Assembly (NCBI GenBank): GCA_016840405.1
Contig: JAEOSK010000023.1
Span: forward strand, 1 to 42,947
Source of the DNA: Candidatus Hermodarchaeum yapensis
Lineage (GTDB): Archaea > Asgardarchaeota > Hermodarchaeia > Hermodarchaeales > Hermodarchaeaceae
Direction of reading: 5' to 3'
DNA length: 42,947 bases
This document shows positions 3,013-31,848 of this stretch, piece after piece; position 1 is the stretch's first letter, and the number at the start of each line of letters is the position of its first letter. The notes beneath the pieces were generated by a model that saw only the letters and a program-made list of their open reading frames with translations, did not search any database and was not told the origin of the DNA. A program made the translations under genes and the position numbers.

Positions 3013-3045
3013 TCTTAGGGCTCCTACTTGTATCTTAAGGGAACT

Positions 3046-4107: not shown

Positions 4108-4246
4108 TCATTAAAAGCCCCTTTGTACTAATTCATGGTGTTTGTTTATTATATTTAATCAAATTATGAGCATTAGTTTGCAAAAAGCCCTCGCCTAAGA
4201 ATATATTGTAGTTCTTAATGAATCGTCCTTTTGGATTAACTTGATT

Positions 4247-5452
4247 TCAAAATGAAGATAGTAACGCAAGTAGTTTTACAAACGTTTTGGAAGCAAATCT
4301 TACTGGAAATGGAAGTCGACAACGAATCAGTTTTTGTAAATATCTAGGTCCTGCTAGCCGCATACACCAGTCGGTAAGACTGTCAGAGATCATAATTTTG
4401 TCAGCAATTCGGAGAATACCTAAAGCGGATGATAATTCCTCTCCAAACTCGGTTTTCCAAGCTGCTTCATACCAGCATAGTGGTTGATTTTGATGTATAT
4501 GCTGAGCTGCGGCAATTCCAGCAAGTTCTCCGCCACCTAGCGCTGTTGGGATTCCGCCTCCATTTGAGGCCATTACATGACCTGCGGCATCACCAACAAG
4601 TAAGACCGAGTCAGAATAGGTCTTAGAAAGTGGTCCACCCATAGGGATGATTGCTCCAGATTTTCGGAGGATTTTTCCTTTTTTCATCCGTTGAATGTTG
4701 GCAGGATGTGAAGAAATGAACCGTTGAAGATAGGAAAAAGCGTTTTCTGAAGTGAATGTAAATGCTCGACGAAAACCCAGCCCAATGTTTACCATTGTTT
4801 CACTTTTGGGAATGACCCAAGCATAGCCGCCAGGGGCGATTTGATGACCGAAATACATCTCCGTCGTGTTTGGGTCACATTCAATATTCGTCATGACGAA
4901 CTGGATAGCTGGAGACAAATCATGAGCCTTATTTTGATAGGATGCCCCAATGGACTGGGCTATTCTCGATTGGGCTCCATCAGCTCCGATTATTACCTTT
5001 GCGTTGATTATTTGTCGTCCGGATTTATTGCGTAGAATGAGTAGGTTAGAGTCTGTTCGTCTAATCACAGTTGTTTGTAAGTGTATATGTGCGCCTTCGG
5101 CTTCGGCTTGCTCTGCAAGATAGGGATCATATTTTGCACGGTCAATAATATTCGAAATGAGACTGAACTCAAATTGGTGGTTGGAAGGAGATGAAAGCAT
5201 CAGCTTTGAAGTTCGATTGGTTATGAATTTTTTAGGCACATCCGCGAGCCGCGCAATCCGTGCCGAGTTAGGGAAGATATTCTTCAATTCTTCTGGAATG
5301 GGAAGGAATTCACCACATTGGACTGGCTTACCAATATGATTGCGACTATCAAACACAATGGTTTTCAAACCATGTTGTGTTGCCACTTTGGCTGCGATAC
5401 AACCAGCTGGTCCTGCTCCAACAATTGCAACATCGTACGAGCCAGTGGACAT
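4247..5452 (-). CDS. Geranylgeranyl reductase-family FAD-dependent oxidoreductase
   Basis: GAGPAG, PVQCGE, GADG, APGGYAWVIPK and VGDAAG motifs. ATG at 5452 preferred over TTG at 5461 on SD spacing. Confidence 0.85.
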   Translation of the reverse strand: MSTGSYDVAIVGAGPAGCIAAKVATQHGLKTIVFDSRNHIGKPVQCGEFLPIPEELKNIFPNSARIARLADVPKKFITNRTSKLMLSSPSNHQFEFSLISNIIDRAKYDPYLAEQAEAEGAHIHLQTTVIRRTDSNLLILRNKSGRQIINAKVIIGADGAQSRIAQSIGASYQNKAHDLSPAIQFVMTNIECDPNTTEMYFGHQIAPGGYAWVIPKSETMVNIGLGFRRAFTFTSENAFSYLQRFISSHPANIQRMKKGKILRKSGAIIPMGGPLSKTYSDSVLLVGDAAGHVMASNGGGIPTALGGGELAGIAAAQHIHQNQPLCWYEAAWKTEFGEELSSALGILRIADKIMISDSLTDWCMRLAGPRYLQKLIRCRLPFPVRFASKTFVKLLALLSSF

Positions 5453-5512
5453 ACGATTCAATTCCTCTTATATAAAAGGGTGATATTTGGACTTGTAAAG
5501 TAATTGTTTGGA

Positions 5513-6721
5513 TTAAATTGGTTCTTCGATGAAACACTCCCGCGCATCTTCACCGAAGTATCGATCAAACAGCCATTCGAGTGAACCGCCAACTGCAGTC
5601 CAATACATTTGAGCAAATGCTTTCTTCATCAGTAGGTTTCGTCGAGTTGGTTTAGCATCTTTAGCAGCTTTGTCATAAGTTGAGATGACAAACAGGGCTT
5701 TACCATATCCAACATCCATGGGACAATGAGTGCGTCCCGTAAATTTACATCGTTCTCCAGTTTGTCTGATATCTGCGATGATGTTCCGGGCAACTACGAC
5801 GGCTTCAAGGTGCGCAGTAACTCCAGACTTAGATGTTCGTAAATCAGCCACATCACCAATGGCATACACGTTTTTTTGACCGTTGACTAGCAATGTGTAT
5901 TTATCTGTTGGAATCCAACCATCTTCATCCCCAATTTTAGAATCAATAATTGCTTGAGGAGCTTTATGAGGGGGAACTACAAACATGGCTTCGAATTCTA
6001 AATCTGTGCCTTCCAAAGAGTAAATTATCTTTTTTTCAGAATCAACTCGGTCGATGTTGAAGAATGGATGGATAATAATTCCCCGTTCTTTGAAATGGCG
6101 CTCGATAGTATTACTGATTGTCGGATCAGGATAAGGTCGAGATATCGGTGTAATGAAATGAATCTCGACATTATCTTTTAATTTCCTTTTCTTGAAAAAT
6201 TCCTCGAGAAGAAAAGCCGCTTCAACGGGCGCTGGAGGGCACTTATGAGGAAATGCACTAACACCTACTACAACTTTGCCCTTCCTGATTTCTTGGATTC
6301 GTTCCCAAACTTTCAAAGCATTTTCCTGCGATGAGTGAAAATCCAAATTTGCTTCATCAAACCCAAGAATTTCATCCCGAGCAATTTTCGACCCTACTGC
6401 AATAATAAGATCATCGTAAATGTACGTCTTGTTAGATTCCGTTATCACCTTATTATTTGTGAAATTAATTTTAGTGACCCTATCAATGCTGAAGTTAATT
6501 CGCTTGTGAAGCAATTTCTTTTCCGGTCGCACAATCTTTTCTGGTTTCATCCCCTTGAAACTTGTATACAATAGATTTGGTTGAAAAACATGGTTTCCAT
6601 CTTCATCAAGCAATGTGATTTCCACATCACCCTTCATAATCTCAGCCCCGAGTTCACGAGCTAAAAGATTAGCTACTAGAGTTCCAGCTGTTCCTCCACC
6701 TAAAACGAGAATTCGTCGCAT
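5513..6721 (-). CDS. Sulfide:quinone oxidoreductase-like FAD-dependent oxidoreductase
   Basis: GGGTAG, HVFQP, KCPPAPVE (catalytic Cys), AIGDVA-SKSG and C-terminal FTGRTHCP Cys; directly downstream of tusA. Confidence 0.7.
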   Translation of the reverse strand: MRRILVLGGGTAGTLVANLLARELGAEIMKGDVEITLLDEDGNHVFQPNLLYTSFKGMKPEKIVRPEKKLLHKRINFSIDRVTKINFTNNKVITESNKTYIYDDLIIAVGSKIARDEILGFDEANLDFHSSQENALKVWERIQEIRKGKVVVGVSAFPHKCPPAPVEAAFLLEEFFKKRKLKDNVEIHFITPISRPYPDPTISNTIERHFKERGIIIHPFFNIDRVDSEKKIIYSLEGTDLEFEAMFVVPPHKAPQAIIDSKIGDEDGWIPTDKYTLLVNGQKNVYAIGDVADLRTSKSGVTAHLEAVVVARNIIADIRQTGERCKFTGRTHCPMDVGYGKALFVISTYDKAAKDAKPTRRNLLMKKAFAQMYWTAVGGSLEWLFDRYFGEDARECFIEEPI

Positions 6722-6731
6722 TGTTCGGCAC

Positions 6732-6977
6732 CTATTGTTTCTTCGCGGTGATTTTTACCGATGCCCGAATGACTCCTGCATTCTCCTCGAGGCCAATGAG
6801 TTCATTCTTGGTCGCCCGAACCCATGCGTTGATATCTGAGGTAAAAGCAGAATCTGTAGCCAAGATATCTAAAATATCGCCATTCTGAGCTTTTCTATAC
6901 GCTCGCGCTACTTCTGTTATTGGACCAGGACAAGCCATTCCACGGCAATCAACGAGTATAGTTCGGGGTTCAGTCAT
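6732..6977 (-). CDS. tusA: TusA/SirA-family sulfur carrier
   Basis: VDCRGMACPGP (CPxP) motif, about 81 aa; ATG at 6977 follows a GGTGG SD-like element. Confidence 0.85.
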   Translation of the reverse strand: MTEPRTILVDCRGMACPGPITEVARAYRKAQNGDILDILATDSAFTSDINAWVRATKNELIGLEENAGVIRASVKITAKKQ

Positions 6978-7116
6978 CTTTTTCCACCAATTTTTCTGTG
7001 CCCGCATCAGAAATTCTCATATAACAACTTTCTCCACTTGCATTATTGGAATTTTTCTCATATAATTAAACGGGGAAAACCATTTTTCACCTCGAATGCT
7101 CGAAAGAAATCGCGAA

Positions 7117-7884
7117 TCAATTGAACAGAGTATTATAAAAAGTAATGAGAAGAAATCCGAGTAAAACTATGCCTAGCATAAATGGGATTAGTAACATCGT
7201 CCAAAACGCAAAGCCGGACCAAAAGGTTAGTGTAAAAAATAAACTAATCGCAACTGTAATCGGTATCTTTGGAAAATCTTTGATTTCCATTTTTAATGAA
7301 ATCACCAAAACCGTAGAAACACCAAAACCAGTAAAAAACCAACCAGCAAAATTGGATAACGGCACTCCATAATAGAATCTTGGAGTTATCCATATCTAAA
7401 TACCAAGGTAAACAAGAATCGGATCGATTATGAAATCAATTATTACAAGAAGGAACGCACTGAGGAGAATGATTTTCCAAGGCTTCTGTAAATACTGAGT
7501 TACTATTGTCACTGTTCCCAAGACAAGTGGAAAAAAGGCAAAAGGGACTGCAAATGGAACTACCCCTAGAATCTTAATTCCAAGTAAATCAGAGTAAAAA
7601 AAATGCCCATAAGGAAACCCCGTTAAAACTCCCATCCCCTCGATGAATAAAGTAAGTATTACGAGAGTTGAAATAATCACAGATGAGTTTTTTGCACCTG
7701 CCTATTAGTAGAAAAAGTGCAAAGAGGGTGGAGCTACAATAACCACAATAGAGTTGAATAAAACCAAGGGAACCATGACTGGAAGAAAAAAGAAGAAATA
7801 GCTTATTACATATGACCCAAGAATGAATAAACCAAACCGAAAAATGATCGGTGTGAAGAATAGCTTTCTTGTTAATGTTGTAAT
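7117..7884 (-). pseudogene. cruF: CruF-family carotenoid hydratase (bisanhydrobacterioruberin hydratase), interrupted
   Basis: Three track ORFs (7705-7965, 7396-7680, 7117-7365) share one frame. Joined, they give IEGMGVLTGFPYGHFFYSDLLGIKILGVVP, DFIIDP and YYGVPLSNFAGW. In-frame stops are TAA 7705-7707, TAG 7702-7704 and TAG 7396-7398. An ATT at 7882-7884 overlaps the lyeJ stop where a coupled ATG would sit. Confidence 0.85.
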
Positions 7885-8744
7885 TAGAGTATCACTATTT
7901 TTGGTATGGTAATTGTGAAGAAGAGAATTAATCCGAAAATCGCGTTCCAGTAGGGAAATAGCCAATAAATCCTCTCAAGATTAGCACTTCGTCGAAGCAA
8001 GAGGTAGAATGGAATAGCGGGATAAACGAACATTAGTACACTCCAAGGAGGATTCCATGGTACAATGAACACAAGGATAATTGCAAATATAAGCCAGAAT
8101 GTAAAGCAGAGAATGAGAGAGGGAATCAAATTAATTAGAACTGCAGTTGTTGTAACATTTGCTCGTTTATCTGCTTCGATGTCTGGAACTGCTGAGAAAA
8201 GGTGCATGGCTGAGGTCCACATAAAAGCAGCAAAAAGTGGAAGAATCGGTGGAATAAATAATTGTAGTTGGTAGAAGGCGAGAATTGCTGGGATGACATA
8301 GAGGAAATTTGACATAAAGTCAAGGAATGGACGAGCCTTGAACCGAATAGGTTTGGCACTATACAAGAAGGAAAGTATCAAGAAGATGACAAAGAGAAGT
8401 CGGGCTATGTTATCCGGTTGAAAAACCATGAGAATAAGTCCATAAACGAAAGCGATGATAATTAACGATATCAGGTTGCGTCTATCTTTCGTTGTCACTC
8501 GATATTCTTTATCATCCTTTTTCGGGTTGAAAATATCAGTATCTTCATCATAGTAATCATTAACACCATAAAGGAAGATATTCGCAGGGAACATGAAAAA
8601 GAAAAGATGGAATGCAAAGAACGGTGTAAGAAATTGACCAACTGTGGTCAACCCGATAACGAAGCCAATAAGATAAGTTCCACCAAGATATAGCCAAAAC
8701 CGTGGACGAGAGATCCGAAAAGCAAGGCGAGTAATACTACTCAA
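7884..8744 (-). CDS. lyeJ: Lycopene elongase/hydratase (UbiA-family prenyltransferase, LyeJ/CrtEb type)
   Basis: ISRPRFWLYLGG, YGVNDYYDEDTD-NPKK, YSAKPIRFKARPFLD and AMHLFSAVPDIEAD motifs; lies between crtD and cruF as in haloarchaea. Confidence 0.85.
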   Translation of the reverse strand: MSSITRLAFRISRPRFWLYLGGTYLIGFVIGLTTVGQFLTPFFAFHLFFFMFPANIFLYGVNDYYDEDTDIFNPKKDDKEYRVTTKDRRNLISLIIIAFVYGLILMVFQPDNIARLLFVIFLILSFLYSAKPIRFKARPFLDFMSNFLYVIPAILAFYQLQLFIPPILPLFAAFMWTSAMHLFSAVPDIEADKRANVTTTAVLINLIPSLILCFTFWLIFAIILVFIVPWNPPWSVLMFVYPAIPFYLLLRRSANLERIYWLFPYWNAIFGLILFFTITIPKIVIL

Positions 8745-8754
8745 TATTTTTTCC

Positions 8755-10233
8755 TCATGAACTATTTTCTTTGGCTATTTGATCTGCAACAATTTGTGAA
8801 GATACAAGAGCCATTGGAACTCCAATTCCTGGATGAGTGTATTGTCCCGTGTAATAGAGGTTTTTCACCTTCTTACTTTTATGGCGTGGTCGAAAGAAGG
8901 CGGATTGACGAAATGTATGGGTAAGCCCCACAGCTGTGCCTTTGTAGGCATGATAATCATTGGCAAAATCGTTCAAAGCGAAGATGCGTTTAACGGTGAT
9001 TGAATCTTGAAACGATTCTCCAATTGATTCCTCCATGTGTGTGATGATTTTGGTGAAGTATTTTTCTCGAATCTGTGGTGTATCTTCAATTCCCGGAGAA
9101 ATAGGGACAGTGACAAAAATATTCTCTTTACCTTTCGGTGCCACAGACGAATCGTATCGTGAGGGACAGCAGACATAATAAGCTGGTTCGTCAGGCCATG
9201 CGGGTTGATCAAAGATTTGGTTGAAATGTTTCACCCAGTCATATTCGAGAAAGCAATTATGGTGAGTTAATTGTGGTAATTTCTGGTCGACTCCAAGATA
9301 CAGCACAAAGGCTGAAGGCGCAATGATTTTCTTTTCCCAGTATTTTGCTGAGTAAGTTTGATATTTTTTATCAAGCAATTCCATTTCAGAAAACGGATAA
9401 TCCGCATTGACAATTACTATATCGGCATCAGTTACTCCCTCAGAGGTCTGCACATGGTGTGCTTGACGATTCTTTACATCAATATGAGTGGCATCAACTT
9501 CAAATTGAAAAACCGCACCATAAGATTCGGCAAGTTTCATAATTCCTTCAGGAATCATCCCAAGGCCACCTCGAGGGTACCAGACACCAAGATTGTAATC
9601 GATATGTGAAATAATCGAGTAGAGTGCAGGAGTATTGGTTGGGTTTCCTCCGAGGAATACAATAGGATATTCTAGGATTTTTCGGGCACGATCACTTTTG
9701 AAGAATTTACGGACCCATTTGTCAATGTTACTTAAGATGTGCAATTTTTGTCCAGCTTTTATGAGCTTAGGGCTAAACATGGACCAGATACTGCTCAAAT
9801 CCTCGTACATAACACCCTCCATCATGAAAGTGTAGGTTTCTTCAGCTTTGTCCAAATATTTCTGTAATTTTTCGCCACCTTTTTCTTCAAAGCTATCAAA
9901 AGTCTTCAAATTGGGTTCTAAGTCAGCTGAAATATCGACAACATCATCTGCTCCAAAAAAGATACGATAATTTGGATCGAGTCGAATTAATTCATAATAA
10001 TCAGCTACTGATTTTTCAAATTGAGCAAAGAAATTTTCAAAGATTTCTGGCATAAGATACCAAGAGGGGCCCATATCAAAGACAAACCCCTCGGTTTTCC
10101 AAACTCGGGCACGTCCTCCAACTTCAGTGTTTCTTTCAATCACTTCTACATCGAAGCCATTTTTCGCAAGAAGCGCAGCAGCAGCTAGACCGCCTACACC
10201 AGCACCAATAATCAGAACTTTTTGGTTCTTCAT
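8755..10233 (-). CDS. crtD: Phytoene desaturase-family protein, carotenoid 3,4-desaturase by context
   Basis: GAGVGG, FDMGPSWYLMP and C-terminal GQYTHPGIGVPMALVS motifs; first gene of the crtD-lyeJ-cruF order. Confidence 0.7.
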   Translation of the reverse strand: MKNQKVLIIGAGVGGLAAAALLAKNGFDVEVIERNTEVGGRARVWKTEGFVFDMGPSWYLMPEIFENFFAQFEKSVADYYELIRLDPNYRIFFGADDVVDISADLEPNLKTFDSFEEKGGEKLQKYLDKAEETYTFMMEGVMYEDLSSIWSMFSPKLIKAGQKLHILSNIDKWVRKFFKSDRARKILEYPIVFLGGNPTNTPALYSIISHIDYNLGVWYPRGGLGMIPEGIMKLAESYGAVFQFEVDATHIDVKNRQAHHVQTSEGVTDADIVIVNADYPFSEMELLDKKYQTYSAKYWEKKIIAPSAFVLYLGVDQKLPQLTHHNCFLEYDWVKHFNQIFDQPAWPDEPAYYVCCPSRYDSSVAPKGKENIFVTVPISPGIEDTPQIREKYFTKIITHMEESIGESFQDSITVKRIFALNDFANDYHAYKGTAVGLTHTFRQSAFFRPRHKSKKVKNLYYTGQYTHPGIGVPMALVSSQIVADQIAKENSS

Positions 10234-10323
10234 GGAAAATTTTCCCCTAAAGAGACTCAATTTTTCATTTCTTGATATTTAATAATATGGTATAAATTCA
10301 TACAACGATTTTTTAATTAGTCA

Positions 10324-10343
10324 TGTCTTATAATAATAAGACA
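10324..10343. promoter_or_regulatory. Perfect 8-bp inverted repeat (TGTCTTAT-aata-ATAAGACA) in the divergent crtD/crtB promoter region; candidate operator
   Basis: Read directly; lies roughly midway between the two starts in an AT-rich spacer. Confidence 0.45.
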
Positions 10344-10436
10344 GTTATGATAGAAAGAGAGAAGCTTTTAAAAACTGAAATAGGAATTCCTTCAAAACTT
10401 AACGGCGTTTAAAAAAATATTTGGAGCTTTATTATA

Positions 10437-11375
10437 TTGCTTAGGGGAGAGAATTACCATTTAGAAGTTATCCCTACAACAATTCGTCCCAAGGAAAAGT
10501 TAAGCCAGGGTGAATTAAAACGGGCTTATAGTTATTGTTTGGGTTTATTTGGTAAACATGCAAAATCCTTTCATTTTGCTTCACGGTATCTTGAAACTGA
10601 CCAACGAAGAAGTATAGCTGCCCTTTATGCCTTTTGCCGTTTAACAGATGATTTTGTAGACGAAGTAGACATGAAGCCGAGCCAAATTGACACTGAGCTT
10701 AATGTTCTGACTGATATTGTACTTCGTTTAAGTGAAGGGGAATCCTTCAATCACCCGATTTTCCAAGCATTTGGCGATACATTAGTGAAATATCAAATTC
10801 CTGTTCAATATCTCAATGAATTAATTGAAGGCGTGAGGATGGATGTTCACCAAAAAGAACTCCAAAACCAACAAGAACTCGATCTTTACTGTTTCCGAGT
10901 TGCGTCCACTGTTGGTTTATCGATGTGCCACATATGGCGGTCTATTCACCCCGAGACACTCCAACGGGCATCCGAACTTGGCATAGCGATGCAGCAAACA
11001 AATATTCTTCGAGATATTGCTGAGGACTATGATAAGGGGCGAATCTACATACCCTTGGAAACCCGTAAAAAGTTCAGGGTGTCAGTTGCAGATTTCGAAG
11101 CCAGGCAAATTACACCGAATTTCCGATTTTTATTAAAACATGAGATTGCCAAGGCAAGAGCCAACTATGCCAGTGCAGAAATCGGTATGATGGACCTTCC
11201 TTCTGCAGCGGCTTTTACCATCAAGGTTGCATCAAGAGTATATGCAAATATCTTGAATCAAATCGAGAAGATGGACTATCAAGTGTTCAAGGCGCGAGCA
11301 GTGGTTCCTAAATGGAAGAAACTCTGGATAGCCTATCAGTGTCGCCGTGAGTACAAACGCGACCTTCGAAAATAA
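10437..11375 (+). CDS. crtB: Phytoene synthase
   Basis: HAKSFHFAS, ALYAFCRLTDDFVD, YCFRVASTVG and TNILRDIAEDYDKGRIYIP motifs; TTG start uncertain. Confidence 0.9.
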   Translation: MLRGENYHLEVIPTTIRPKEKLSQGELKRAYSYCLGLFGKHAKSFHFASRYLETDQRRSIAALYAFCRLTDDFVDEVDMKPSQIDTELNVLTDIVLRLSEGESFNHPIFQAFGDTLVKYQIPVQYLNELIEGVRMDVHQKELQNQQELDLYCFRVASTVGLSMCHIWRSIHPETLQRASELGIAMQQTNILRDIAEDYDKGRIYIPLETRKKFRVSVADFEARQITPNFRFLLKHEIAKARANYASAEIGMMDLPSAAAFTIKVASRVYANILNQIEKMDYQVFKARAVVPKWKKLWIAYQCRREYKRDLRK

Positions 11376-11426
11376 ATTTTGTACCGATTATTTGAGGCAA
11401 ATGAAAATTCCCTAAAGTGACTTAGA

Positions 11427-12935
11427 GTGACCCCAAAAAACACACAAAACATTGTCATAATAGGCGGAGGTTTTGGTGGCTTATCAGCAGCAGTACGATT
11501 GCAAGCCAATGGTTACAATGTAACAGTATTGGAAAAACGTAACCAGCTTGGAGGTCGAGCTGGACTCATTGAACGAAAAGGTTTCCGATTTGACACAGGC
11601 CCTACGATAATTACTCCACCTTCCGTAGTAGAAGATATCTTTCTCGAAGCAGGACGCGATCCCCAGGACTATGTTGAACTAGTTTCAATTCATCCGCACT
11701 ATCGCCTCCATTATGCCGATGGAACACACTTCGATATTGGCACTTTCGAAGAGGTTGCACAGCAAATTCAACAACTGAGTCCTAATGATTTGAAAGGGTA
11801 TCAGAAATGGCTCGAAATTCTTGAACCCATCTATAAACTCGGCTTCGAAAAATTCGCAAACACACCCTTTGATAGCCTTTGGAGTATGGCCAAGATTGTG
11901 CCATCAGCTATTCGTCTGAAATCTTACAAAAGTGTCTATGGACTTGTCGCTAGTTATATGAAAAACGAGAAGCTTCGTATGGCATTTTCATTTGTTCCCC
12001 TCTTTATTGGCGGAAATCCCTTCACGACAACAAGTGTTTATTCACTGATTGCCTATCTCGAAAATAAGTATGGTATGCTTTGGGTTCGGGGTGGAACCCA
12101 TCGATTCGTTGAAGCCTTAGAGAAGTTATACTTAGAACTTGGGGGAACTATCAAACTAAATTCAGAAGTGACTAAAATTGAGGTCGATGAGAAAGACCGG
12201 AGGGTCACTGGTGTATTCACCGCAAGTGGAGATCACTTTCCCACTAACATTGTTATTAGTAACGCCGATGTTGCCATGACCTACATGAAACTCATTGATA
12301 AACGATTTCGTCGGAAAAACACAGATCGCCGATTCAAAAAGGCTAATTTTAGTATGAGTTTATTCATGGTTTATTTTGGAACTAAAAAGAAATATCCAGA
12401 TATGCCGCACCACAACGTCATTTTTGGCCCTCGATATAAAGAACTTATTAAAGACATCTTTGACCGTCATATCCTCCCTGATGATTTTTCCATTTATTTG
12501 CATGTACCAACAAGGACAGATCCAGAACTTGCACCTCCTGGTTGTGAAACCTTTTATGCATGTGTTCCGGTCACGCATCAAGACTCTGGAATCGATTGGG
12601 AAGAAATGAAAGAACCGTTTAAGAATCGAATTTTGCAGTACCTGAATGACCATTATCTTCCTGATTTATTAAATAACCTTGAGGTATGTGAGGTCTTTAC
12701 CCCCCAAGATTTTGAAAAAGAGCTGAACGCTTACAAAGGAAATGCATTCCAATTACAGCCTCTTATGACTCAATCTGGATGGTTCCGACCACACAATCGT
12801 TCACGTGATATAAAGGGCTTATACATAGTTGGTGCTGGAACTCATCCAGGTGCGGGAGTGCCGAGTGTCTTACTTAGTGGAAAAATTACTTCAGAGATCA
12901 TTTTCAGCGACTATGGGAAACCATCAATTGAATAA
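11427..12935 (+). CDS. crtI: Phytoene desaturase
   Basis: IGGGFGGL, FDTGPTIIT, GGNPF, QSGWFRPHN and VGAGTHPGAGVPSV motifs. Confidence 0.9.
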   Translation: MTPKNTQNIVIIGGGFGGLSAAVRLQANGYNVTVLEKRNQLGGRAGLIERKGFRFDTGPTIITPPSVVEDIFLEAGRDPQDYVELVSIHPHYRLHYADGTHFDIGTFEEVAQQIQQLSPNDLKGYQKWLEILEPIYKLGFEKFANTPFDSLWSMAKIVPSAIRLKSYKSVYGLVASYMKNEKLRMAFSFVPLFIGGNPFTTTSVYSLIAYLENKYGMLWVRGGTHRFVEALEKLYLELGGTIKLNSEVTKIEVDEKDRRVTGVFTASGDHFPTNIVISNADVAMTYMKLIDKRFRRKNTDRRFKKANFSMSLFMVYFGTKKKYPDMPHHNVIFGPRYKELIKDIFDRHILPDDFSIYLHVPTRTDPELAPPGCETFYACVPVTHQDSGIDWEEMKEPFKNRILQYLNDHYLPDLLNNLEVCEVFTPQDFEKELNAYKGNAFQLQPLMTQSGWFRPHNRSRDIKGLYIVGAGTHPGAGVPSVLLSGKITSEIIFSDYGKPSIE

Positions 12936-12976
12936 TCTGAGAAACTACTTTTTTTCGCTAATACCCTCGACAATTA

Positions 12977-13213
12977 TTACTTGAAAAGTTCTGTTGCTAG
13001 ATCCAAAGCGGATCTCGCATCAGGAGCATAACCATCAGCCCCAATCTTCTTCCAAAGCTCTTGATCAATCATAAATGCCCTACGGCCAACGACTATTTTC
13101 AAATCTTTAATATTGTCATTCTTTCTTATCGTAGTGATGACTTTCTCTACTTCAACGACATGCAGAGGAAAAGTTACTAAAAGGGCTAACAGATTAGCAT
13201 TCTGTTTTACTTG
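12977..13213 (-). pseudogene. C-terminal remnant of a cobalamin (B12)-binding domain protein
   Basis: Manual translation: QVKQNANLLALLVTFPLHVVEVEKVITTIRKNDNIKDLKIVVGRRAFMIDQELWKKIGADGYAPDARSALDLATELFK*. An upstream TAG at 13214-13216 closes the frame; no full-length start and no ExH/DxH ligand motif. Confidence 0.75.
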
Positions 13214-13304
13214 CTATATGAAAATTCTTGAAATATCAGAACTTCTGAGTACTTTGTTGATTTAAACCTTAGAGCAAATAGCAGAAAATGATGGCGCTTC
13301 ATTA

Positions 13305-13778
13305 CTATGGTGATCCCAATGCGATAGTTTCAATTATCTCCTTTAATTTCACAATAACGAGAGGTTTCTCTGGAGAAAGAGAAGCCCAGCTATCTGTGGT
13401 TTTCAATCCATGAGCTGCAAGGAAGTTTGTGGATAATTTTTTTGCACCAACTTCAGACATTTGCCTAATCACATTAGTTCTTTCCGCAGAATCCGTTACT
13501 ATTTCCAATTCTCCACGGAATACAACAAAGCAATATTGATGTAAATCAGGTTGGTAGGATTCGATTTCAACGGCTACACGATTATCTTCCTCGATGAGCT
13601 TCATTTTCTTCCCGTAGCGTGTGAAATGAAAATAGAGGTTTCCATTGATGTAGGCATACTGAAATGGAGCCATATACGGGTATTCTTCTCCCCTGAAAGC
13701 AATTCGACAAATTACCTGTTGTTTGAGTAGCTCTTCAACTCTTTGTCGCTCCATTTTAGGCAATTTAACAATAGACAT
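13305..13778 (-). CDS. Pyridoxamine 5'-phosphate oxidase-like (NimA-type) flavin-binding protein
   Basis: CRIAF-YPYMAP-LYFH-GKKM-RVAVEI split-barrel pattern; GAGGTG upstream of ATG 13778. Confidence 0.8.
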   Translation of the reverse strand: MSIVKLPKMERQRVEELLKQQVICRIAFRGEEYPYMAPFQYAYINGNLYFHFTRYGKKMKLIEEDNRVAVEIESYQPDLHQYCFVVFRGELEIVTDSAERTNVIRQMSEVGAKKLSTNFLAAHGLKTTDSWASLSPEKPLVIVKLKEIIETIALGSP

Positions 13779-13852
13779 TAGAAACACCTCTTACATACCT
13801 GAAGAAGCCTTCCCAAATAAATGCAATACGGATTCTTAACTGGGTGGTGAAC

Positions 13853-15244
13853 ATGGAAAGAGCCTATGAAAACTCATTATTTATTTTTCGACGTGATCTA
13901 CGACTCGAGGACAATTTAGGGTTGATTAATGCACTCACCAACTCTTCGGAAGTTGTTCCATGTTTTTTCTTCGACCATAGACTACTAGCTACCAAGCAAC
14001 AGCATCATAATGCTATCCAATTTATGGTTGAAGCGCTGAAAGATTTGGATGATCAATTGACTCAGAAGAATGGCCAACTTTTTTGTTTTTCCGACTTTCC
14101 TGAAAAAAAAGTTCCAAGTTTAATTAGTTCACTTCATATTGATGCTATCTTTGTGAATCGTGATTATACCCCATTTAGTCAGCGACGAGATTCCCGGTTG
14201 AGAAAAATATGCGACCAGGCAAGTGTAGACTTTCACCAATTTGCTGATTTGCTTCTTAATGAGCCTGAAATGGTTCATAAATCGAATGCTGAACCGTATA
14301 AGGTCTTTACACCATTTTTCCAAAAAGCGGAGCAGATTCCTGTAGCGTCTTCGAAGGCGAATCCTCATCGGAATTATTCATCGCCAAAGATTTTGCGAAA
14401 AAAGATTCTCACCTCAGTTCTTAAGAAATATCAATTTCAGACCAACGAAAGGTTGCTTTTTCAAGGCAATAGATCTTCCTGCCTAAGAATACTCGAGGAT
14501 TTGAGTCCTTTTCGAGATTATGAAACCAAGCGTGATCTTCCCTTTGAGCATGGAACCACTCAACTATCACCGTATCTAAAATTTGGACTTTGTTCAATTC
14601 GAGAGGTCCATGCAGCTGTTTCGAACCAGTTAGGAGCAACACATCCTTTAATTCGACAACTATACTGGCGTGATTTCTATACTCATATTGCCTTTCATTA
14701 TTCCTATGTGTTTAAACGGGCATTCAAAGCCCGATACGAAAATCTTCAATGGAACAAGAGTAAAACACTCTTTCAAGCCTGGTGTGAAGGAAAAACTGGA
14801 TTTCCGATTGTAGATGCTGGGATGCGTCAACTCAATACGACTGGCTGGATGCATAATCGGGTTCGTATGATTGTCGCCTCATTTCTGACCAAGGATCTTC
14901 ACATAGACTGGCGTTCAGGAGAAAGGTATTTTGCTAAACATTTAGTCGACTATGATCCTGCAGTGAATAATGGAAATTGGCAATGGGCCGCTTCAACAGG
15001 TGTTGATGCACAGCCTTACTTCCGAATCTTCAATCCCTGGCGCCAACAAGAAAAATATGATTCCAACTGTGAATACATTAAACATTGGATTCCCGAATTA
15101 TCACAAGTCGAACCCAAGATAATTCACCGATGGTTTAAGCCAACAAAGTGGGATTCCCAACTCAATTACCCTAAACCCCTTGTTGATCATAAGCAAGAAA
15201 GCCAATTTTCAAAGGAACTTTTCGCGAAAACTTACTCAACTTAA
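13853..15244 (+). CDS. phrB: Deoxyribodipyrimidine (CPD) photolyase
   Basis: FRRDLRLEDN, LSPYLKFG, QLYWRDFY, GKTGFPIVDAGMRQL, WMHNRVRM, DYDPAVNNGNWQW and YFRIFNP motifs; Trp triad positions present. Confidence 0.92.
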   Translation: MERAYENSLFIFRRDLRLEDNLGLINALTNSSEVVPCFFFDHRLLATKQQHHNAIQFMVEALKDLDDQLTQKNGQLFCFSDFPEKKVPSLISSLHIDAIFVNRDYTPFSQRRDSRLRKICDQASVDFHQFADLLLNEPEMVHKSNAEPYKVFTPFFQKAEQIPVASSKANPHRNYSSPKILRKKILTSVLKKYQFQTNERLLFQGNRSSCLRILEDLSPFRDYETKRDLPFEHGTTQLSPYLKFGLCSIREVHAAVSNQLGATHPLIRQLYWRDFYTHIAFHYSYVFKRAFKARYENLQWNKSKTLFQAWCEGKTGFPIVDAGMRQLNTTGWMHNRVRMIVASFLTKDLHIDWRSGERYFAKHLVDYDPAVNNGNWQWAASTGVDAQPYFRIFNPWRQQEKYDSNCEYIKHWIPELSQVEPKIIHRWFKPTKWDSQLNYPKPLVDHKQESQFSKELFAKTYST

Positions 15245-15703
15245 TTACTGTGTGTACTTACTGATGGGTCCCCAATTTTCAATACAGTCATTTTCTGGTT
15301 TCTTTGTACAAAAATGAATTAAAACAGGTGATTCATCCAATTCTTGTTCTTTGTCAAAGAATTCACGATCCCCATAACGGATAGCTTCTAAAACGAGGTC
15401 TAATTCCCGGCGAAAAATAGCTTCTCGAAAGCTTCGAGAGCCAAGTCCGCGAACAACCTGACAATAAACATGAAGAGCAGTACCATCTTCATCTATAGTC
15501 AATTCAGCAAGAACCTCATCCCGCATGAGTCGGGTGTACAAACCCTTGATTTGTTTGTAGTCGTAATCAGAGCCTATAGTGAGAAAAAGATTTCCCGTCC
15601 TATCTGAATGAGTAAGGGTATATCGACGGGGGAATTTTTGATTATTGGGTGATAGTGAATCGAGATAGCGAACTTTCAGTTTTTCAGGTCTCAATCTTGC
15701 CAT
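15245..15703 (-). CDS. Staygreen (SGR) family protein, Mg-dechelatase homolog
   Basis: PRRYTLTHSDRTGNLFLTIG, MRDEVLAE, LHVYC, IFRRELDLVLEAIRYGD and ENWG motifs. Confidence 0.9.
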   Translation of the reverse strand: MARLRPEKLKVRYLDSLSPNNQKFPRRYTLTHSDRTGNLFLTIGSDYDYKQIKGLYTRLMRDEVLAELTIDEDGTALHVYCQVVRGLGSRSFREAIFRRELDLVLEAIRYGDREFFDKEQELDESPVLIHFCTKKPENDCIENWGPISKYTQ

Positions 15704-15728
15704 TTAAAACCCCAACACATGAAGTTCC

Positions 15729-16184
15729 TTAGAGTTTTAATTCATCAATCTTTGATATAATTTCATCAACGTGCCCTGGGACTCGAACCTTTGGCCATAC
15801 AAAGCGAATTATTCCTTCACGATCTATGAGAAACGTTGATCGTTGGGCAGAACCGGTTTCAGGTTTAAGCACATCGTAAAGTTTGACTACTTTTAGTTCC
15901 TTATCTGCGATTAGAGGAAACTGTAATGCATTTTTCGCTTTGAAACCAGATTGTCGTTTGACACTATCGGTGCTTACCCCAACGACTTTCACACCCATTC
16001 CTGTTAGACGAATCATATTATCACGAAAAGAGCATGCTTCCTTTGTACAACTTGGAGTACCCGCACGTGGATAGAAGTATAACACAATGATATTTCCACG
16101 AAGATCACTTAGTGTTAGTTCTGATCCATCATCGATAGGAGCGGTAAAATCAGGGGCATTTTGTCCTATTTCTGGTAAAGCCAT
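15729..16184 (-). CDS. bcp: Peroxiredoxin, BCP/PrxQ family
   Basis: VLYFYPRAGTPSCTKEACSFRD (CxxxxC) and RSTFLID motifs. Confidence 0.9.
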   Translation of the reverse strand: MALPEIGQNAPDFTAPIDDGSELTLSDLRGNIIVLYFYPRAGTPSCTKEACSFRDNMIRLTGMGVKVVGVSTDSVKRQSGFKAKNALQFPLIADKELKVVKLYDVLKPETGSAQRSTFLIDREGIIRFVWPKVRVPGHVDEIISKIDELKL

Positions 16185-16282
16185 TTGTATCACCTCATTT
16201 AATTTTCAAGCCAATCTATGGTATTTAGAAGAGACAAGAAATGAGGGAAAAAACCCCTCATTTGATTGTAATTACTAGAATC

Positions 16283-16684
16283 CTAATTGGGCAAAATCAC
16301 TTTATCAATGACGTGGATCACGCCGTTCTCAGCTTCAATGTCAGCTTTGATAACGTGGGCATCATCGACTTTAACACCGTCCGAGGTGTCAATATGGATA
16401 CTTTGGCCCTGGACCGTTTTTATTTCGCCTTTGCTGATGACGTCTTCGGCCTTGTATTTTCCTGCTACAACGTGGTAGAGGAGAATCGCTTTCAGCTTTT
16501 CCGTGTCTTTTAGAAGAGCTTCGACCGTACCCTCTGGGAGCGCATTAAAGGCATCATCAGTTGGGGCGAACACAGTAAAGGGTCCATCACTCGACAAGGT
16601 TTCGGCTAATCCAGCCGCGGTAGCAGCCGTTAATAGAGTATTAAACTGGCCTGCATCTTTTGCAATTTTTACAATATTTTCCAT
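16283..16684 (-). CDS. Single-domain fasciclin (FAS1) protein without signal peptide
   Basis: [19 protein letters not shown] and [11 protein letters not shown] motifs. Confidence 0.92.
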
Positions 16685-16929
16685 GTTTCATCAATCCTTG
16701 AATTTATGGACCCGGGGATGATTGTATTCAATCATTCTCGGAATTAACACTGTTAAGATTCTAAGCAGTATATAAATATTATCCTTAATTAAAAAATTAT
16801 CTAAGTAAATAGTACAAGTCATTGATTACTATAAAATCCCCCCTAACCAGTCAAAACGCACTAAATTGAAAGGTGGTAATTCCACCAGCACAAGTCACCA
16901 GTGATTAGGAAATGATTTAATCCAACAAA

Positions 16930-17568
16930 TCATGCCTTTTTTACCCGGAAAAGGATGATAAGTCCGTAGATGAGTTTTGTGATTACATCTAAAGCAGCGT
17001 AGAGTATTGCGGCGATGAATGTCGTAATGAGACCGAACCCTGTTGGTGCAAGGAGGAATACTAGTGGGAAGAGTGACCAGAAGATTATAATGAACCACAT
17101 AAGTTGTGAATTCATTCCTTCTCTTGGAACACCTTTGAATAAGGTGATGAGTAGAGCGATATAGGCAATGGAACTGAAAGCGAAAAACCACCACCGTTCG
17201 ATGCCTGTAATAAAAGCGGCCAGAAATCCACAGAACATCACGAGCATCGTCAGGATAGGAATTTTCGCAAGGGCGACTGGTTGTGTATGTCTCAGAACAA
17301 CTGCAACCGACACGGTTAGTAAACTACAGCTAGCCATGTAAAAGAGCCATCGGCTCCAATAAATTGGTTCACCAAAAATTGATGTGACTGTCAGGAAACC
17401 AAGTGCCATCAGAACATACGAAATTGTGGTAACGAAGGCAACTATGATATCAACGAACGAAAGGAATTCATCGGCTCCAGATCGAAACGAAAGCAATGAA
17501 AACATTATTGAAGAAATGCCAAAGATTGCAGCCATAATCCAAAAGACGAGTAATTCTTCTCCAGCCAT
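16930..17568 (-). CDS. Microbial rhodopsin, schizorhodopsin-like
   Basis: 212 aa with seven hydrophobic segments. Helix C YWSRWLFYMASCSLL, helix F WSLFPLVFLLAPTGFG, helix G LDVITK with retinal Lys198 and Asp194. Confidence 0.88.
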   Translation of the reverse strand: MAGEELLVFWIMAAIFGISSIMFSLLSFRSGADEFLSFVDIIVAFVTTISYVLMALGFLTVTSIFGEPIYWSRWLFYMASCSLLTVSVAVVLRHTQPVALAKIPILTMLVMFCGFLAAFITGIERWWFFAFSSIAYIALLITLFKGVPREGMNSQLMWFIIIFWSLFPLVFLLAPTGFGLITTFIAAILYAALDVITKLIYGLIILFRVKKA

Positions 17569-17668
17569 TTTTCATATCTCCTTTTGGTTAGGTAAGGAAT
17601 AATAGAGTACGAACTTATTATAAAAATCTACCAACAGGACGGAGTGAATGTGAAAATTACGAAAAGTA

Positions 17669-18133
17669 TTAGGACTCGTCTTCAAATTTCGAGATTGCGT
17701 TTAAGACTGCAGTCTCTTTTTCCTCTGAAAACACTCCAGTGTCTCGCCAGAGGATATTGCCATCACAATCGACTAAGAAGAGGTAGATCGTGTCTTCAGT
17801 GGGAATATCTAATGCTTTGGTAAATTCACTTTTGTCAATATAGAGAGTAATTGTACGAGCTCGCATTACTTTGTCATGTATTCCGCCTCTCATACCACTG
17901 TCAATTATCCATTGAGAAAGCACATTGAATTTCCGAAGCGTAGGTAATTCATAGAATTGGATTTGCGGATGTTCTGTCACGAGTGTTTGGAGAAATGGTA
18001 CCCAAGTTTCAATGGGTCGTACTTGCCATTGTTGAAATGCTACTACGAGAAAATTAAGTTTGCCTTCTAATTTTTCTGGGATGATGTGGGAAACACCATT
18101 TAGGTCTTTTCCAGCGACTTGGGGAAATTTCAT
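17669..18133 (-). CDS. Conserved thioredoxin-like fold protein lacking CxxC (ATP10-like)
   Basis: FPxxxGxDLNG start, LVVAF strand, YELP, IDSGMRGGI and YLFLVDxDGNILWR end. Confidence 0.55.
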   Translation of the reverse strand: MKFPQVAGKDLNGVSHIIPEKLEGKLNFLVVAFQQWQVRPIETWVPFLQTLVTEHPQIQFYELPTLRKFNVLSQWIIDSGMRGGIHDKVMRARTITLYIDKSEFTKALDIPTEDTIYLFLVDCDGNILWRDTGVFSEEKETAVLNAISKFEDES

Positions 18134-18271
18134 CTAATATCACGATTCTAATTATGTTTTGTGTGTTTTATTAGAGAGTTTAAAGGCTTGCGCTTTTGTG
18201 ACACGTTTTTTGATAATATTTAATTTCAAGAAATTCAGTGAAATAGATTACCTAACGAGTTCTGTAGCATC

Positions 18272-18541
18272 TTATCCATATCTGAATGCCATACCAAAAG
18301 TCCCGCGGGGGTAGCTCCATTCGATGACTCGTTTGGGACATATGATTTTGCAAGTTCCACATTCGATGCAGTCTTCATATTGAAACAAGAATTTGTTTTC
18401 TTCGATTTTGAAGCAGCCTGCCGGGCATCCAACTATGCAAGGCTTGGTTCGACATTTTTCACATTTTTCAGTATTGACAATGATGTGAGGTTCTTTATCG
18501 AGATTGTAGCGGATGAGTCCGAGTTTTTCTTCGAGTTTCAT
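18272..18541 (-). CDS. fixX: FixX-type ferredoxin
   Basis: CEKC-PC-CPAGC and CIECGTCKIICP clusters, WSYPRG-YG terminus; ATGA overlap with fixC. Confidence 0.88.
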   Translation of the reverse strand: MKLEEKLGLIRYNLDKEPHIIVNTEKCEKCRTKPCIVGCPAGCFKIEENKFLFQYEDCIECGTCKIICPKRVIEWSYPRGTFGMAFRYG

Positions 18542-19821
18542 AATCCTCTTACCACTTGAAGACCATCCCGAATTAAGGAAGGTATTGTTACATTTCCGAG
18601 AACATGACGAATGAGGAGTTGTACTAGCTTCTGTCTCGGAACAGCTTTAGATGTGAAAAGATCATGAGCAAATGTATTTACCAGTTTAGGATAGGTTGAG
18701 TGCAGGCGCGGATTATTGAACAGATTATGGGCTCGTTTGAACGTTTTCATATCCTTTAGTACAAAACTATCTCTAAGTACCTGTTCATAACGTTTCAGAC
18801 TCCGTTTTGAAAAATCTCCTGTTTTAGTGGCTGCGATTACGGTTTCAGCGGCAGCTATTCCTGAAGCAATAGCGAAGTTCATTCCTTCTAATGCATATCC
18901 GATGTTAAAAGCTAGCCCCGCAGCGTCGCCAGTGACTAGAAATCCATTGGTGTAGAGTTTAGTTATTTTTGAATAGCCTCCTTCTGGAACTAAATGGGCG
19001 GAATATTCTTTGAGTTCACCATCTCGGATCAATCGTTGGATGAAAGCGTGGGATTTGTAGTGTTCCATGAGGTCAGGGGCTGTATCTTTGGTGACTTCAA
19101 ATGCAGGAAGAAAAATGACAAGCCCTAATGAAAGGGTGTCTTGGTTTGTGTAGAGAAATCCACCACCTGGATGGCCTTTCGTACATCCTATGAAGTGATA
19201 GGCTGCGCCTTCATTTCCGATGAGATTAAACCGTTCTTCAATAATTTTGCGAGGTAGTTTGTATACCTCTTTGATTCCGAGCCCCATTTGTTCAGATGTG
19301 TGTTCTTTTCGCATGTGGGCTTTTGCAGCGAGTTGCGAGTTAACACCATCAGCAGCAATGACAACATTAGCTTGAACTTCATCGGTTCCCGCTTTTACTC
19401 CGATAATTCGGTTCTTTTTCCATAATAAATCATCGACTCGAATCCCAGGAGCGAGAAGTGCACCTGCGTTTTCCGCTTGTTCAGCAAACCATTGATCGAA
19501 TTTGTACCGATTTATTGAATATCCATCATTCGGAACTGGCGAGCGTTTACCTGATGAAAAATCTAATGTGAATGCAGATTCATTGGAGAGGAGTGAGAGT
19601 CGGTGTGTTGTAATTCGGCGTTCAAGCGGTGCCTTTTCCCAATAATTTGGAATTAGATTATGGAGAACCTGCCCATAGAGAACGCCACCTGATACGTTTT
19701 TTTCACCTGGCGTTTTAGCACGTTCAACGAGCATTACCTCTAATCCATTTTTTGCTAATGAATATGCTGCGGCACTTCCCGCAGGACCTGCTCCAACAAC
19801 GATAGCATCTAAATTTTCCAT
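18538..19821 (-). CDS. fixC: FixC-family FAD-dependent (ETF:quinone) oxidoreductase
   Basis: GAGPAG, GEKNVSGG, GGGFLYTN, EYSAHLVPEGG and GDAAG motifs. Confidence 0.88.
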   Translation of the reverse strand: MENLDAIVVGAGPAGSAAAYSLAKNGLEVMLVERAKTPGEKNVSGGVLYGQVLHNLIPNYWEKAPLERRITTHRLSLLSNESAFTLDFSSGKRSPVPNDGYSINRYKFDQWFAEQAENAGALLAPGIRVDDLLWKKNRIIGVKAGTDEVQANVVIAADGVNSQLAAKAHMRKEHTSEQMGLGIKEVYKLPRKIIEERFNLIGNEGAAYHFIGCTKGHPGGGFLYTNQDTLSLGLVIFLPAFEVTKDTAPDLMEHYKSHAFIQRLIRDGELKEYSAHLVPEGGYSKITKLYTNGFLVTGDAAGLAFNIGYALEGMNFAIASGIAAAETVIAATKTGDFSKRSLKRYEQVLRDSFVLKDMKTFKRAHNLFNNPRLHSTYPKLVNTFAHDLFTSKAVPRQKLVQLLIRHVLGNVTIPSLIRDGLQVVRGL

Positions 19822-22455: not shown

Positions 22456-22470
22456 ACTTGTGATGGGATC

Positions 22471-27140: not shown

Positions 27141-27152
27141 TCTCGTTTTCTC

Positions 27153-28670: not shown

Positions 28671-28861
28671 ATCTAGACCACCCGGAAGTCTTCCTAATAG
28701 TTTCTATTTTTTGGGCATTACTGGGGGCAATTCCCTTAAAAGTTATATTAACTTGACGGTACGAGCAGGAAAAAAAAGTTGCCAACACCAATGGATTAAA
28801 ATATTCTAGCAACCTCGCACTCGCACAGTATCTCGAGGGTGGATTTGTCCTGATTCGAAAA

Positions 28862-29353: not shown

Positions 29354-29365
29354 TTTTTTTCTCAG

Positions 29366-29620: not shown

Positions 29621-29739
29621 ACCTGAATTCAGTAGCCTGATGTTCTAATCCATTGAACAATTAAACATTTACTCCCCATTAGATAATTTTATTAAGCTTC
29701 ACCTTTAAAACGTTCAGTCGTTTAGAATTCATATATGAT

Positions 29740-31834: not shown

Positions 31835-31848
31835 AGATAACGGAAGGA

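Follow-up and report, generated by a model that had tools for sequence, protein, structure and literature searches.

A probable photoprotection and photo-oxidative-stress gene island, with a decayed photoreceptor gene, in a genus of Hermodarchaeia

Analysis of a contig of Candidatus Hermodarchaeum yapensis (JAEOSK010000023.1, assembly GCA_016840405.1; the whole contig of 42,947 bp was analysed and is called the window) indicates that positions 7117 to 19821 hold an island of genes for carotenoid synthesis, light-driven DNA repair, peroxide removal, a Staygreen homologue and an opsin. We read this island as a native, AT-rich and genus-specific toolkit for photoprotection and photo-oxidative stress, made of separate transcription units of which at least two are co-regulated, and in which the photoreceptor gene has decayed. 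We give this reading a probability of roughly 0.6. The metagenome-assembled genome (MAG) to which the contig belongs comprises 2.7 Mb in 77 contigs and is 86% complete, with an estimated contamination of 4.4%.

Gene identities were obtained from an open reading frame (ORF) listing and from scans with Pfam and NCBIfam profiles, with Protein Data Bank (PDB) matches for selected proteins. Every gene named in a preliminary description of this DNA was found by Pfam and NCBIfam where it had been placed. For the comparison within the genus, 10 loci from 8 congeners were fetched around island genes, and presence was counted over 14 congeners. The features of the island are the following.

7117-7974, minus strand: cruF, C50 carotenoid hydratase, a pseudogene as assembled (PF04240 on both pieces, TIGR03460)
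7884-8744, minus strand: lyeJ-type lycopene elongase, a UbiA prenyltransferase (PF01040; NF009516 equivalog, 290 bits, cut-off 205)
8755-10260, minus strand: crtD, CrtID-type carotenoid desaturase (NF058655 equivalog, 681.5 bits, cut-off 640; PF01593)
10261-10436, intergenic: promoter region between the divergent crtD and crtB, with the box TTAACGGCGTTTA at 10399-10411
10437-11375, plus strand: crtB, phytoene synthase (PF00494, E 1e-67; NCBIfam CrtB and HpnD match below their cut-offs)
11427-12935, plus strand: crtI, phytoene desaturase (TIGR02734, 585 bits, cut-off 238)
12977-13213, minus strand: 3' stump, some 71 codons long, of a B12/bilin photoreceptor gene of the photocobilin type (recognised by 59% identity to the C-terminal end of a full-length orthologue)
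13305-13787, minus strand: PNPOx-like split-barrel protein, flavin mononucleotide-binding (PF12900, E 5e-21)
13844-15244, plus strand: phr, class I cyclobutane pyrimidine dimer (CPD) photolyase (PF00875 and PF03441; PDB 2e0i, E 6e-109)
15245-15703, minus strand: Staygreen (Mg-dechelatase) homologue (PF12638, E 7.5e-45)
15729-16193, minus strand: BCP/PrxQ-type peroxiredoxin (PF00578, E 4.5e-38; TPSC...C motif)
16283-16684, minus strand: single-domain cytoplasmic fasciclin (FAS1) protein (PF02469, E 1e-41)
16744-16756, intergenic: exact palindrome TTAACACTGTTAA in the promoter of the fasciclin-BCP-Staygreen unit (DNA motif search)
16930-17568, minus strand: schizorhodopsin-family opsin of the F-S-S subtype (PF01036; PDB 7e4g, E 2.7e-32)
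17669-18133, minus strand: ATP10-like thioredoxin-fold protein of 154 aa (PF05176, 23.4 bits, cut-off 22.3)
18272-19821, minus strand: fixX-fixC, a ferredoxin-like protein and an ETF-QO-like flavoprotein (Pfam)

The neighbourhood is modular and its parts recur in the 10 congener loci, so the synteny in relatives that the preliminary description had named as a check is found within the genus. In the layout shared by the genus, the phr-PNPOx pair adjoins crtI-crtB and the divergent crtD-lyeJ-cruF genes, the ATP10-like and opsin genes lie on the other side, and the fasciclin-BCP-Staygreen unit is present between those blocks or absent, depending on the locus. We consider the arrangement a genus-level invention and not an Asgard-wide one, because at 15 schizorhodopsin loci from other Asgard families no island gene lies within about 10 kb of the schizorhodopsin gene. 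The fixC-fixX genes are encoded on the same strand as crtB-crtI, with short gaps and in the order crtB-crtI-fixC-fixX, in L009, L112, L114, L115 and L119; they look like part of the carotenoid operon and may take up electrons from the desaturases when oxygen is low. From this usual congener place after crtB-crtI (L009:5422-9511) they have moved beyond the opsin gene in the window and in the congener G014. Since FixX and FixC belong to the island in most congeners, its natural right-hand end is near 19821 and not at 18133. Another rearrangement was seen in the congener G011, where the moved opsin-fasciclin-BCP-Staygreen module (G011:C34, L011/L113, 10547-14588) adjoins genes for a PolX-type DNA polymerase with a PHP domain and for an Fpg/Nei-type glycosylase, with a uracil-DNA glycosylase-family gene upstream, and thus lies beside DNA-repair genes again.

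The same comparison bears on the alternative that the island has no functional integration, being a recombination-prone accessory hotspot of unrelated small modules whose common theme is pattern-matching by the observer. The GC content of the island (0.397, against 0.445 +/- 0.015 for the genome) falls in the lowest 0.6% of equal-sized (12.7-kb) windows, its modules shuffle between species and two of its genes have decayed here, all of which would agree with a hotspot. Yet the same functional classes re-associate in the loci of the 8 congeners despite the rearrangement, a conserved operator sits at fixed promoter positions of two units, and Staygreen genes independently adjoin crtB-crtI, BCP or photolyase genes in Chloroflexota, Bathyarchaeia and Thor-, Hod- and Heimdallarchaeota. 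We regard this alternative as quite improbable and retain the reading of a photoprotection toolkit.

The contig itself is native Hermodarchaeia DNA. The gene order from cruF through the ATP10-like gene is identical in G014 and in the window, and about 5.6 kb past the ATP10-like gene of G014 come FixX-FixC and then phosphodiesterase-TackOD1-Ras, which is the order across the 19.9-kb junction of the window. In G011, TackOD1-phosphodiesterase is joined directly to the part that carries ATP10-like-phr-PNPOx-fixXC-crt. The SQR-like gene of the left flank has orthologues 70-74% identical in 5 congeners, and orthologues of both flanks show 63-86% identity within the genus. The closest relatives of Staygreen, opsin and LyeJ are records named Hermodarchaeota/Hermodarchaeia or other Asgard archaea, and the same contig encodes a Ras-family GTPase, a TackOD1 protein and a form III RuBisCO. 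The source had been described as a probable Asgard archaeon, which these data support and narrow to Hermodarchaeia, and a concern had been raised that the 19.9-kb junction marked a chimeric assembly or a misbinned bacterial or haloarchaeal segment. A GC step from about 0.40 to 0.44-0.48 near 20 kb and the estimated contamination of the MAG are what such an artefact might leave, but it is contradicted by the synteny, by the junction order in G014 and the related orders in G011, and by the Hermod and other Asgard MAGs that hold the closest relatives of every island gene. Because G014 shares the junction order, G011 has related orders and orthologues of the left flank sit in congeners, a chimera or misbin is very unlikely.

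Alignment of the promoter regions of the genus uncovered a palindrome, TTAAC-N3-GTTAA, in two units of the island. Seven of 8 genus loci have it 22-38 nucleotides upstream of crtB, and an eighth copy lies at a cut contig end on the crtB side. For the fasciclin gene, all 6 of the 6 loci have an exact copy 59-72 nucleotides upstream, and a TATA box precedes it. The two window copies are those at 10399-10411 (one mismatch, 38 nucleotides upstream of crtB) and 16744-16756 (exact). With at most one mismatch allowed, the 178 kb of genus loci contain 21 matches, of which 14 fall at the crtB or fasciclin positions, and the 6 exact copies in the genome are all intergenic and promoter-proximal. One of them is flanked by the TATA box and the start codon of a gene for an 80-aa winged-helix protein of the ArsR/HTH_5 type (G000:C12:14217-14473, G000 being this genome; L168:435-677). 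Of the 12 congeners searched, 10 keep this gene together with its exact palindrome, as the present genome does, whereas the pair was not found in 8 other Asgard families. These results suggest that the crtB and fasciclin units are co-regulated, possibly within a wider redox regulon. As the same site is conserved in its own promoter, the ArsR-type protein is probably the binder of the island boxes and the best candidate for it, in the pattern of an autoregulated repressor, and it would gate at least the pigment and the fasciclin-BCP-Staygreen units. A further motif, TACGGATT, shared by phr/PNPOx and ATP10-like promoters, was seen by eye in few loci only and is not relied on here. In Corynebacterium glutamicum, light-inducible carotenogenesis is repressed by CrtR, likewise a small winged-helix repressor that has no B12 domain and acts at a divergent crt promoter (PMC6739363). 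CrtR is of the MarR type, whereas the Hermod candidate, with its predicted binding, is of the ArsR/HTH_5 type.

The piece of B12-binding sequence at 12977-13213 gave no Pfam match on its own. It can be recognised only by comparison with a 349-aa orthologue that is intact in a congener (L009:4367-5416), to whose residues 277-347 it is 59% identical and in which PF02607 (B12-binding_2) and PF02310 (B12-binding) were both matched. The W-x9-E-H cap and the histidine of E-x-H-x-x-G are present in the orthologues of L009 and L119, and both belong to the part deleted from the window, where residues ~277-347 are all that is retained. The best PDB matches of the intact orthologue are the photocobilins 8j2y and 8j2w (8j2y, E 1.6e-26 for the B12-binding region), and its N-terminal residues 1-140 align to the globin-like bilin domain of 8j2y, with no helix-turn-helix match and only a weak phycobilisome/globin-like signal in profile scans of that segment. 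Elsewhere in the genome there is a single further B12-domain match, with 19% identity. Of the 14 species of the genus, 3 have a full-length photoreceptor gene and 2 a partial one, this genome has the stump, and in 8 the gene was not found. We conclude from these alignments that the ancestral island held a photocobilin-type B12/bilin photoreceptor, with bilin binding predicted, and that about 276 codons of its gene were deleted in this genome, which leaves a non-functional stump. A fragment in another congener (G013:C159:180-473) covers residues ~249-346 of a photocobilin-type gene only, contains an in-frame TAG and may represent independent or shared decay.

Photocobilins are photoreceptors that use B12 and biliverdin (8J2W/8J2Y), and a subgroup in which the B12 domain is C-terminal has been described (PMC10979010). 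The intact congener protein belongs among them by its match to both the B12-binding region and the globin-like domain of 8j2y (PMC10979010), whereas the window has the ~71 residues of the stump; the Hermod form differs in being archaeal, stand-alone, predicted rather than known to bind bilin, and placed inside a carotenoid/photolyase island. The B12-binding remnant of the preliminary description is therefore real, but it is not of the CarH/LitR kind that had been invoked, since the orthologue has a photocobilin-like globin domain and no MerR-type DNA-binding domain. CarH/LitR B12 photoreceptors of Myxococcus, Thermus and Streptomyces govern the light-induced carotenoid and photolyase regulons of bacteria (for the field, see PMC6739363). 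The island resembles those regulons in its crt genes and photolyase, in its ancestral adenosylcobalamin-type photoreceptor with W-x9-E-H and a histidine ligand, and in having repressor-type operators at crt promoters. It differs from them in that the Hermod photoreceptor, now a stump here, has the globin-like domain in place of the MerR one, in that a separate protein, of the ArsR type, is the candidate for DNA binding, and in the addition of opsin, Staygreen, BCP and fasciclin genes.

For the pigment, crtB-crtI would make lycopene, which the divergent crtD-lyeJ unit would elongate and desaturate to a pigment of the C50 bacterioruberin series. The crtD-lyeJ-(cruF) set named earlier stands for crtD and lyeJ, both above equivalog cut-offs, and falls short at cruF, which has three in-frame stops. 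This gene is a single frame from 7974 to 7117, with an in-frame TAA-TAG at 7702-7707 and a TAG at 7396-7398. Codon alignment with the intact genes of 6 congeners indicates that TAA-TAG replaces Arg-Trp and that the other TAG replaces Trp, and both TAG codons are single G-to-A changes of TGG. In a genus-wide search the pattern of 2 TAG and 1 TAA was returned by this genome (G000) only, and cruF is intact in 6 of 14 congeners. Outside the stops the sequence differs from the intact orthologues no more than these differ from one another, which suggests that the inactivation is recent. We treat cruF, as assembled, as a pseudogene with true nonsense codons. A rescue of cruF by reading TAG as pyrrolysine was rejected, as TAG ends 29% of the long ORFs and one of the 3 stops is TAA; the search of the genome for PylS gave nothing above cut-off. 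Also rejected was a case of parallel recoding in G038, whose cruF with TAG/TAA stops proved on inspection to be a diverged 175-aa ORF.

The C50 bacterioruberin pathway is thus represented by a LyeJ-type elongase and a CrtD-type desaturase, with no intact CruF, and the product should stop at bisanhydrobacterioruberin because cruF is broken in this genome. The nearest relatives of lyeJ outside the genus are from Thor- and Lokiarchaeota, with 57-65% identity, and farther ones are named lycopene elongase/hydratase. Compared with the crtD-lyeJ-cruF bacterioruberin operon of haloarchaea (Yang et al. 2015, cited in PMC9258230), the island has the identical three families in identical order, with the CrtID and LyeJ models above equivalog cut-offs, but its cruF is a pseudogene, its genes are of Asgard type, congeners mostly append fixC-fixX to crtB-crtI, and neither a lycopene cyclase nor a brp/blh partner was found.

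The photolyase has the N-terminal and flavin adenine dinucleotide-binding domains and its closest solved relative is that of Sulfolobus tokodaii (2e0i), which places it in class I of the CPD enzymes. The PNPOx-like gene is always divergent from phr, and the pairing is kept in every genus locus that covers the region. The photolyase would repair UV dimers using blue light, and in the fasciclin-BCP-Staygreen unit BCP would remove peroxides.

The Staygreen protein keeps the motifs P-R-R-Y-T-L-T-H-S-D-R-T and M-R-D-E, which correspond to the catalytic D34 and D62 and the structural R26, Y28 and T29 of AbSGR-h, a characterised Anaerolineae enzyme in which D34 and D62 are essential (PMC8531759). Staygreen homologues of non-phototrophs dechelate chlorophyll in vitro (PMC8531759, PMC11006732), and the archaeal protein probably removes Mg from chlorophyll-type pigments that are acquired together with detritus. 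The gene is present in 7 of 14 congeners, and homologues occur widely among Bathyarchaeia, Chloroflexota and other Asgard lineages. Additionally, in unrelated phyla we repeatedly observed Staygreen genes of non-phototrophs only a few kb away from genes for crtB-crtI, BCP or photolyase, namely in Bathyarchaeota, Anaerolineae and Pseudolabrys (L034, L035, L038, L065), in Thorarchaeota (L013, L020, L023, L049) and in Hod- and Heimdallarchaeota (L039, L081). These recurrent neighbourhoods hint at a general and undescribed link of Staygreen to photo-oxidative defence.

The fasciclin protein has no signal peptide, as its ORF begins at the domain, and its closest single-domain structures are Fdp 1w7d (1e-36) and CupS (4e-35). 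A role as an AstaP-like carotenoid carrier was considered and not adopted, AstaP being distant at E 1e-9, and is kept as a weak idea. The ATP10-like protein had been called a thioredoxin-fold protein, which is right for the fold: its AlphaFold model (pLDDT, the predicted local distance difference test, 97.6) matches TlpA/ResA/DsbE in Foldseek. PF05176 is matched by 29 of the 48 members of its family, whose invariant residues are P4, P19, W44, E62, P64 and M81. The CxxC motif is absent, its position reading F-Q-Q-W-Q, and the protein, which has no redox cysteines, is redox-dead. The gene is found in 9 congeners, all of them opsin-bearing, and is absent from 4 that have no opsin, while the contig of G010 ends inside its opsin gene. 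Prediction of a complex between the ATP10-like protein and the opsin gave a score of 0.00, which is no answer and counts as evidence neither way.

The opsin clearly belongs to the schizorhodopsin (SzR) family, as its PDB matches indicate (7e4g, schizorhodopsin 4, E 2.7e-32; AntR, E 3e-29; sensory rhodopsin II and bacteriorhodopsin, 1e-11). Asp194 of helix G and the Schiff-base Lys198, with Asp four residues before Lys, are invariant in the alignments, and helix C keeps Phe76 at the position of bacteriorhodopsin (BR) D85, Ser80 at that of BR T89, and Cys81. At the cytoplasmic Glu/Asp position (BR D96; SzR4 E81, MtSzR D87) the opsin has Ser87. All 38 of the 38 Hermod-clade sequences have Ser there, and the other 72 of the 110 homologues have D, E or N, with one Val. 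The change E81Q abolishes transport in SzR1, and 58 of 63 published schizorhodopsins keep Glu or Asp at this place (PMC7148096); recent structures also centre the mechanism on the negative charge that the acceptor carries (bioRxiv 10.1101/2025.10.20.683367). Because Ser replaces the carboxylate whose E81Q change inactivates SzR1, it is improbable that the opsin acts as a standard inward proton pump, and a sensor, a regulator or a rewired pump are all possible. The earlier label of schizorhodopsin-like opsin thus gave the right family for a protein that does not have the carboxylate defining pumping schizorhodopsins. With SzR1, SzR4, AntR and MtSzR it shares a length of about 200 aa, the helix-C Phe/Ser-Cys and the helix-G Asp/Lys (PMC7148096; bioRxiv 10.1101/2020.07.28.224907; bioRxiv 10.1101/2025.10.20.683367), and the difference is the Ser of the 38-sequence clade. 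Opsin genes occur in 10 of 14 congeners. Of 400 Asgard genomes, type-1/SzR rhodopsins pass the Pfam cut-off in only 27, and no lineage is richer in them than this genus.

No route to retinal was found in this 86%-complete genome, with no match to PF15461, PF03055 or PF18916 (Blh/Brp, RPE65-type oxygenase and heterodimeric lycopene cyclase). Matches to the lycopene cyclase family PF05834 were rejected as cross-hits of geranylgeranyl-reductase-type flavoproteins, the control also matching E. coli and methanogens. Retinal is probably scavenged, by analogy with Ca. Kariarchaeum (Heimdallarchaeia), which has a rhodopsin, only crtB, crtI, lyeJ and crtD of the 'bacterioruberin series', no retinal pathway and a scavenged chromophore (bioRxiv 10.1101/2024.09.18.613612; PMC12137139). 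Both share the Asgard rhodopsin, the same limited crt set and the missing retinal pathway, but the Ca. Kariarchaeum rhodopsins are outward pumps with xanthophyll antennas, from pelagic cells, and are not clustered with photolyase, Staygreen, BCP or fasciclin genes, whereas the Hermod genes form one tight island in a sediment lineage. The Hermod opsin would bind scavenged retinal and report or use light differently from the characterised schizorhodopsins.

Several observations weigh against the island as a photoprotection toolkit. Modules are gained, lost and relocated between species, as shown by Staygreen in 7 of 14 congeners and the full-length photoreceptor in 3 of 14, and in G011 the opsin and crt genes are on separate contigs. 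The cruF stops rest on the assembled sequence, and as the genome is 86% complete, the absence of retinal genes is unproven. The palindrome is not significantly enriched in the genome, and since its exact count of 6 is close to the compositional expectation of 4.6, the case for it rests on position and conservation. In the genus loci the phr/PNPOx, ATP10-like and opsin promoters do not have it, and its other copies precede genes for an XRE-type regulator, a ferredoxin-like protein and a hydrogenase/complex-I-like protein beside catalase, which a redox regulon would explain no less well than a light regulon; for these reasons a single light regulon for the whole island is not supported. The 'one integrated light system' of the preliminary description consequently holds in part. 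The content is coherent with photoprotection and two units share the palindrome, but integration is not shown, as the other promoters have no box, modules come and go, cruF and the photoreceptor are broken, and no retinal route was found.

The main rival explanation takes the island as a general defence against oxygen and oxidative stress in a microaerobic sediment archaeon, with light incidental, carotenoids acting as membrane antioxidants, BCP as a peroxidase, and the boxes belonging to a redox-responsive ArsR-type regulon. The palindrome copies before the ferredoxin-like gene and the hydrogenase/complex-I-like gene beside catalase are consistent with it, as are the dispensability of the photoreceptor gene in most congeners and the MenA-like, GGPPS, SQR-like and FixCX redox genes of the flanks. 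It leaves aside that the photolyase, the opsin and the ancestral B12/bilin photoreceptor strictly need light and are kept together across species, and that the only known substrates of Staygreen are chlorophyll-type pigments (PMC8531759). On balance we hold this rival to be unlikely and prefer the photoprotection toolkit, with light as the presumed trigger.

A more far-reaching proposal, which goes beyond that toolkit, concerns the opsin. In Halobacterium, apo-bacterioopsin regulates lycopene elongase. By analogy, the Ser-type (F-S-S) clade could be a photosensor or a regulator of carotenoid flux and not a pump, and together with an ArsR-type repressor on the TTAAC-N3-GTTAA boxes it could form an undescribed light-triggered photoprotection regulon in a retinal-scavenging sediment Asgard genus that uses Staygreen to detoxify the chlorophyll it ingests. 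This proposal is speculative and we think it doubtful.

Outside the island, the left flank (1951-7007) encodes a MenA-like naphthoate prenyltransferase, a polyprenyl synthase of the geranylgeranyl diphosphate (GGPP) type, a geranylgeranyl reductase, an SQR-like flavoprotein and TusA, that is, isoprenoid/quinone and sulfur chemistry beside the carotenoid genes, an adjacency that is not kept in G014. At 21553-23022 the genes of the TackOD1-domain protein and of the Ras-family small GTPase (PF00071, E 1e-50) are convergent, and the pair adjoins a phosphodiesterase gene in G014 too. A form III-like RuBisCO large subunit is encoded at 34822-36060, flanked by sets of oligopeptide/dipeptide ABC transporter genes (25084-33732 and 37176-42947).

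Light-responsive clusters of crt, photolyase and B12 genes are textbook knowledge in bacteria. In the literature we found no paper that links Hermodarchaeota with rhodopsins or describes this island, and the earlier statement that the combination was not known to be described is valid to that extent, but Heimdallarchaeial rhodopsins, bacterioruberin genes and scavenged retinal have been published. The view of the lineage as usually regarded as dark is outdated, as schizorhodopsins were first named from Asgard archaea (PMC7148096) and Heimdallarchaeial rhodopsins and crt genes are on record. What appears to be new is that these modules are linked throughout the genus, that a clade of SzR proteins is of the Ser type, that an archaeal carotenoid/photolyase island includes a photocobilin-type receptor, and the operator/ArsR pair.

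Eukaryotes have no closer known relatives than the Asgard archaea, whose handling of light and oxygen bears on models of their ecology. Our data indicate that a genus of sediment Hermodarchaeia keeps, as one linked kit, genes for pigment synthesis, for DNA repair, for the removal of peroxides, for an opsin and for a putative enzyme that takes Mg from chlorophyll. This offers testable handles in the form of a natural schizorhodopsin clade without the residue that is considered essential for pumping inward, an archaeal repressor and operator that are candidates for the control of carotenoid genes, and a recurrent link of Staygreen to carotenoid and light genes in non-phototrophs. The gene loss in progress, with the photoreceptor reduced to a stump and cruF apparently freshly broken, helps to date when lineages leave the light.

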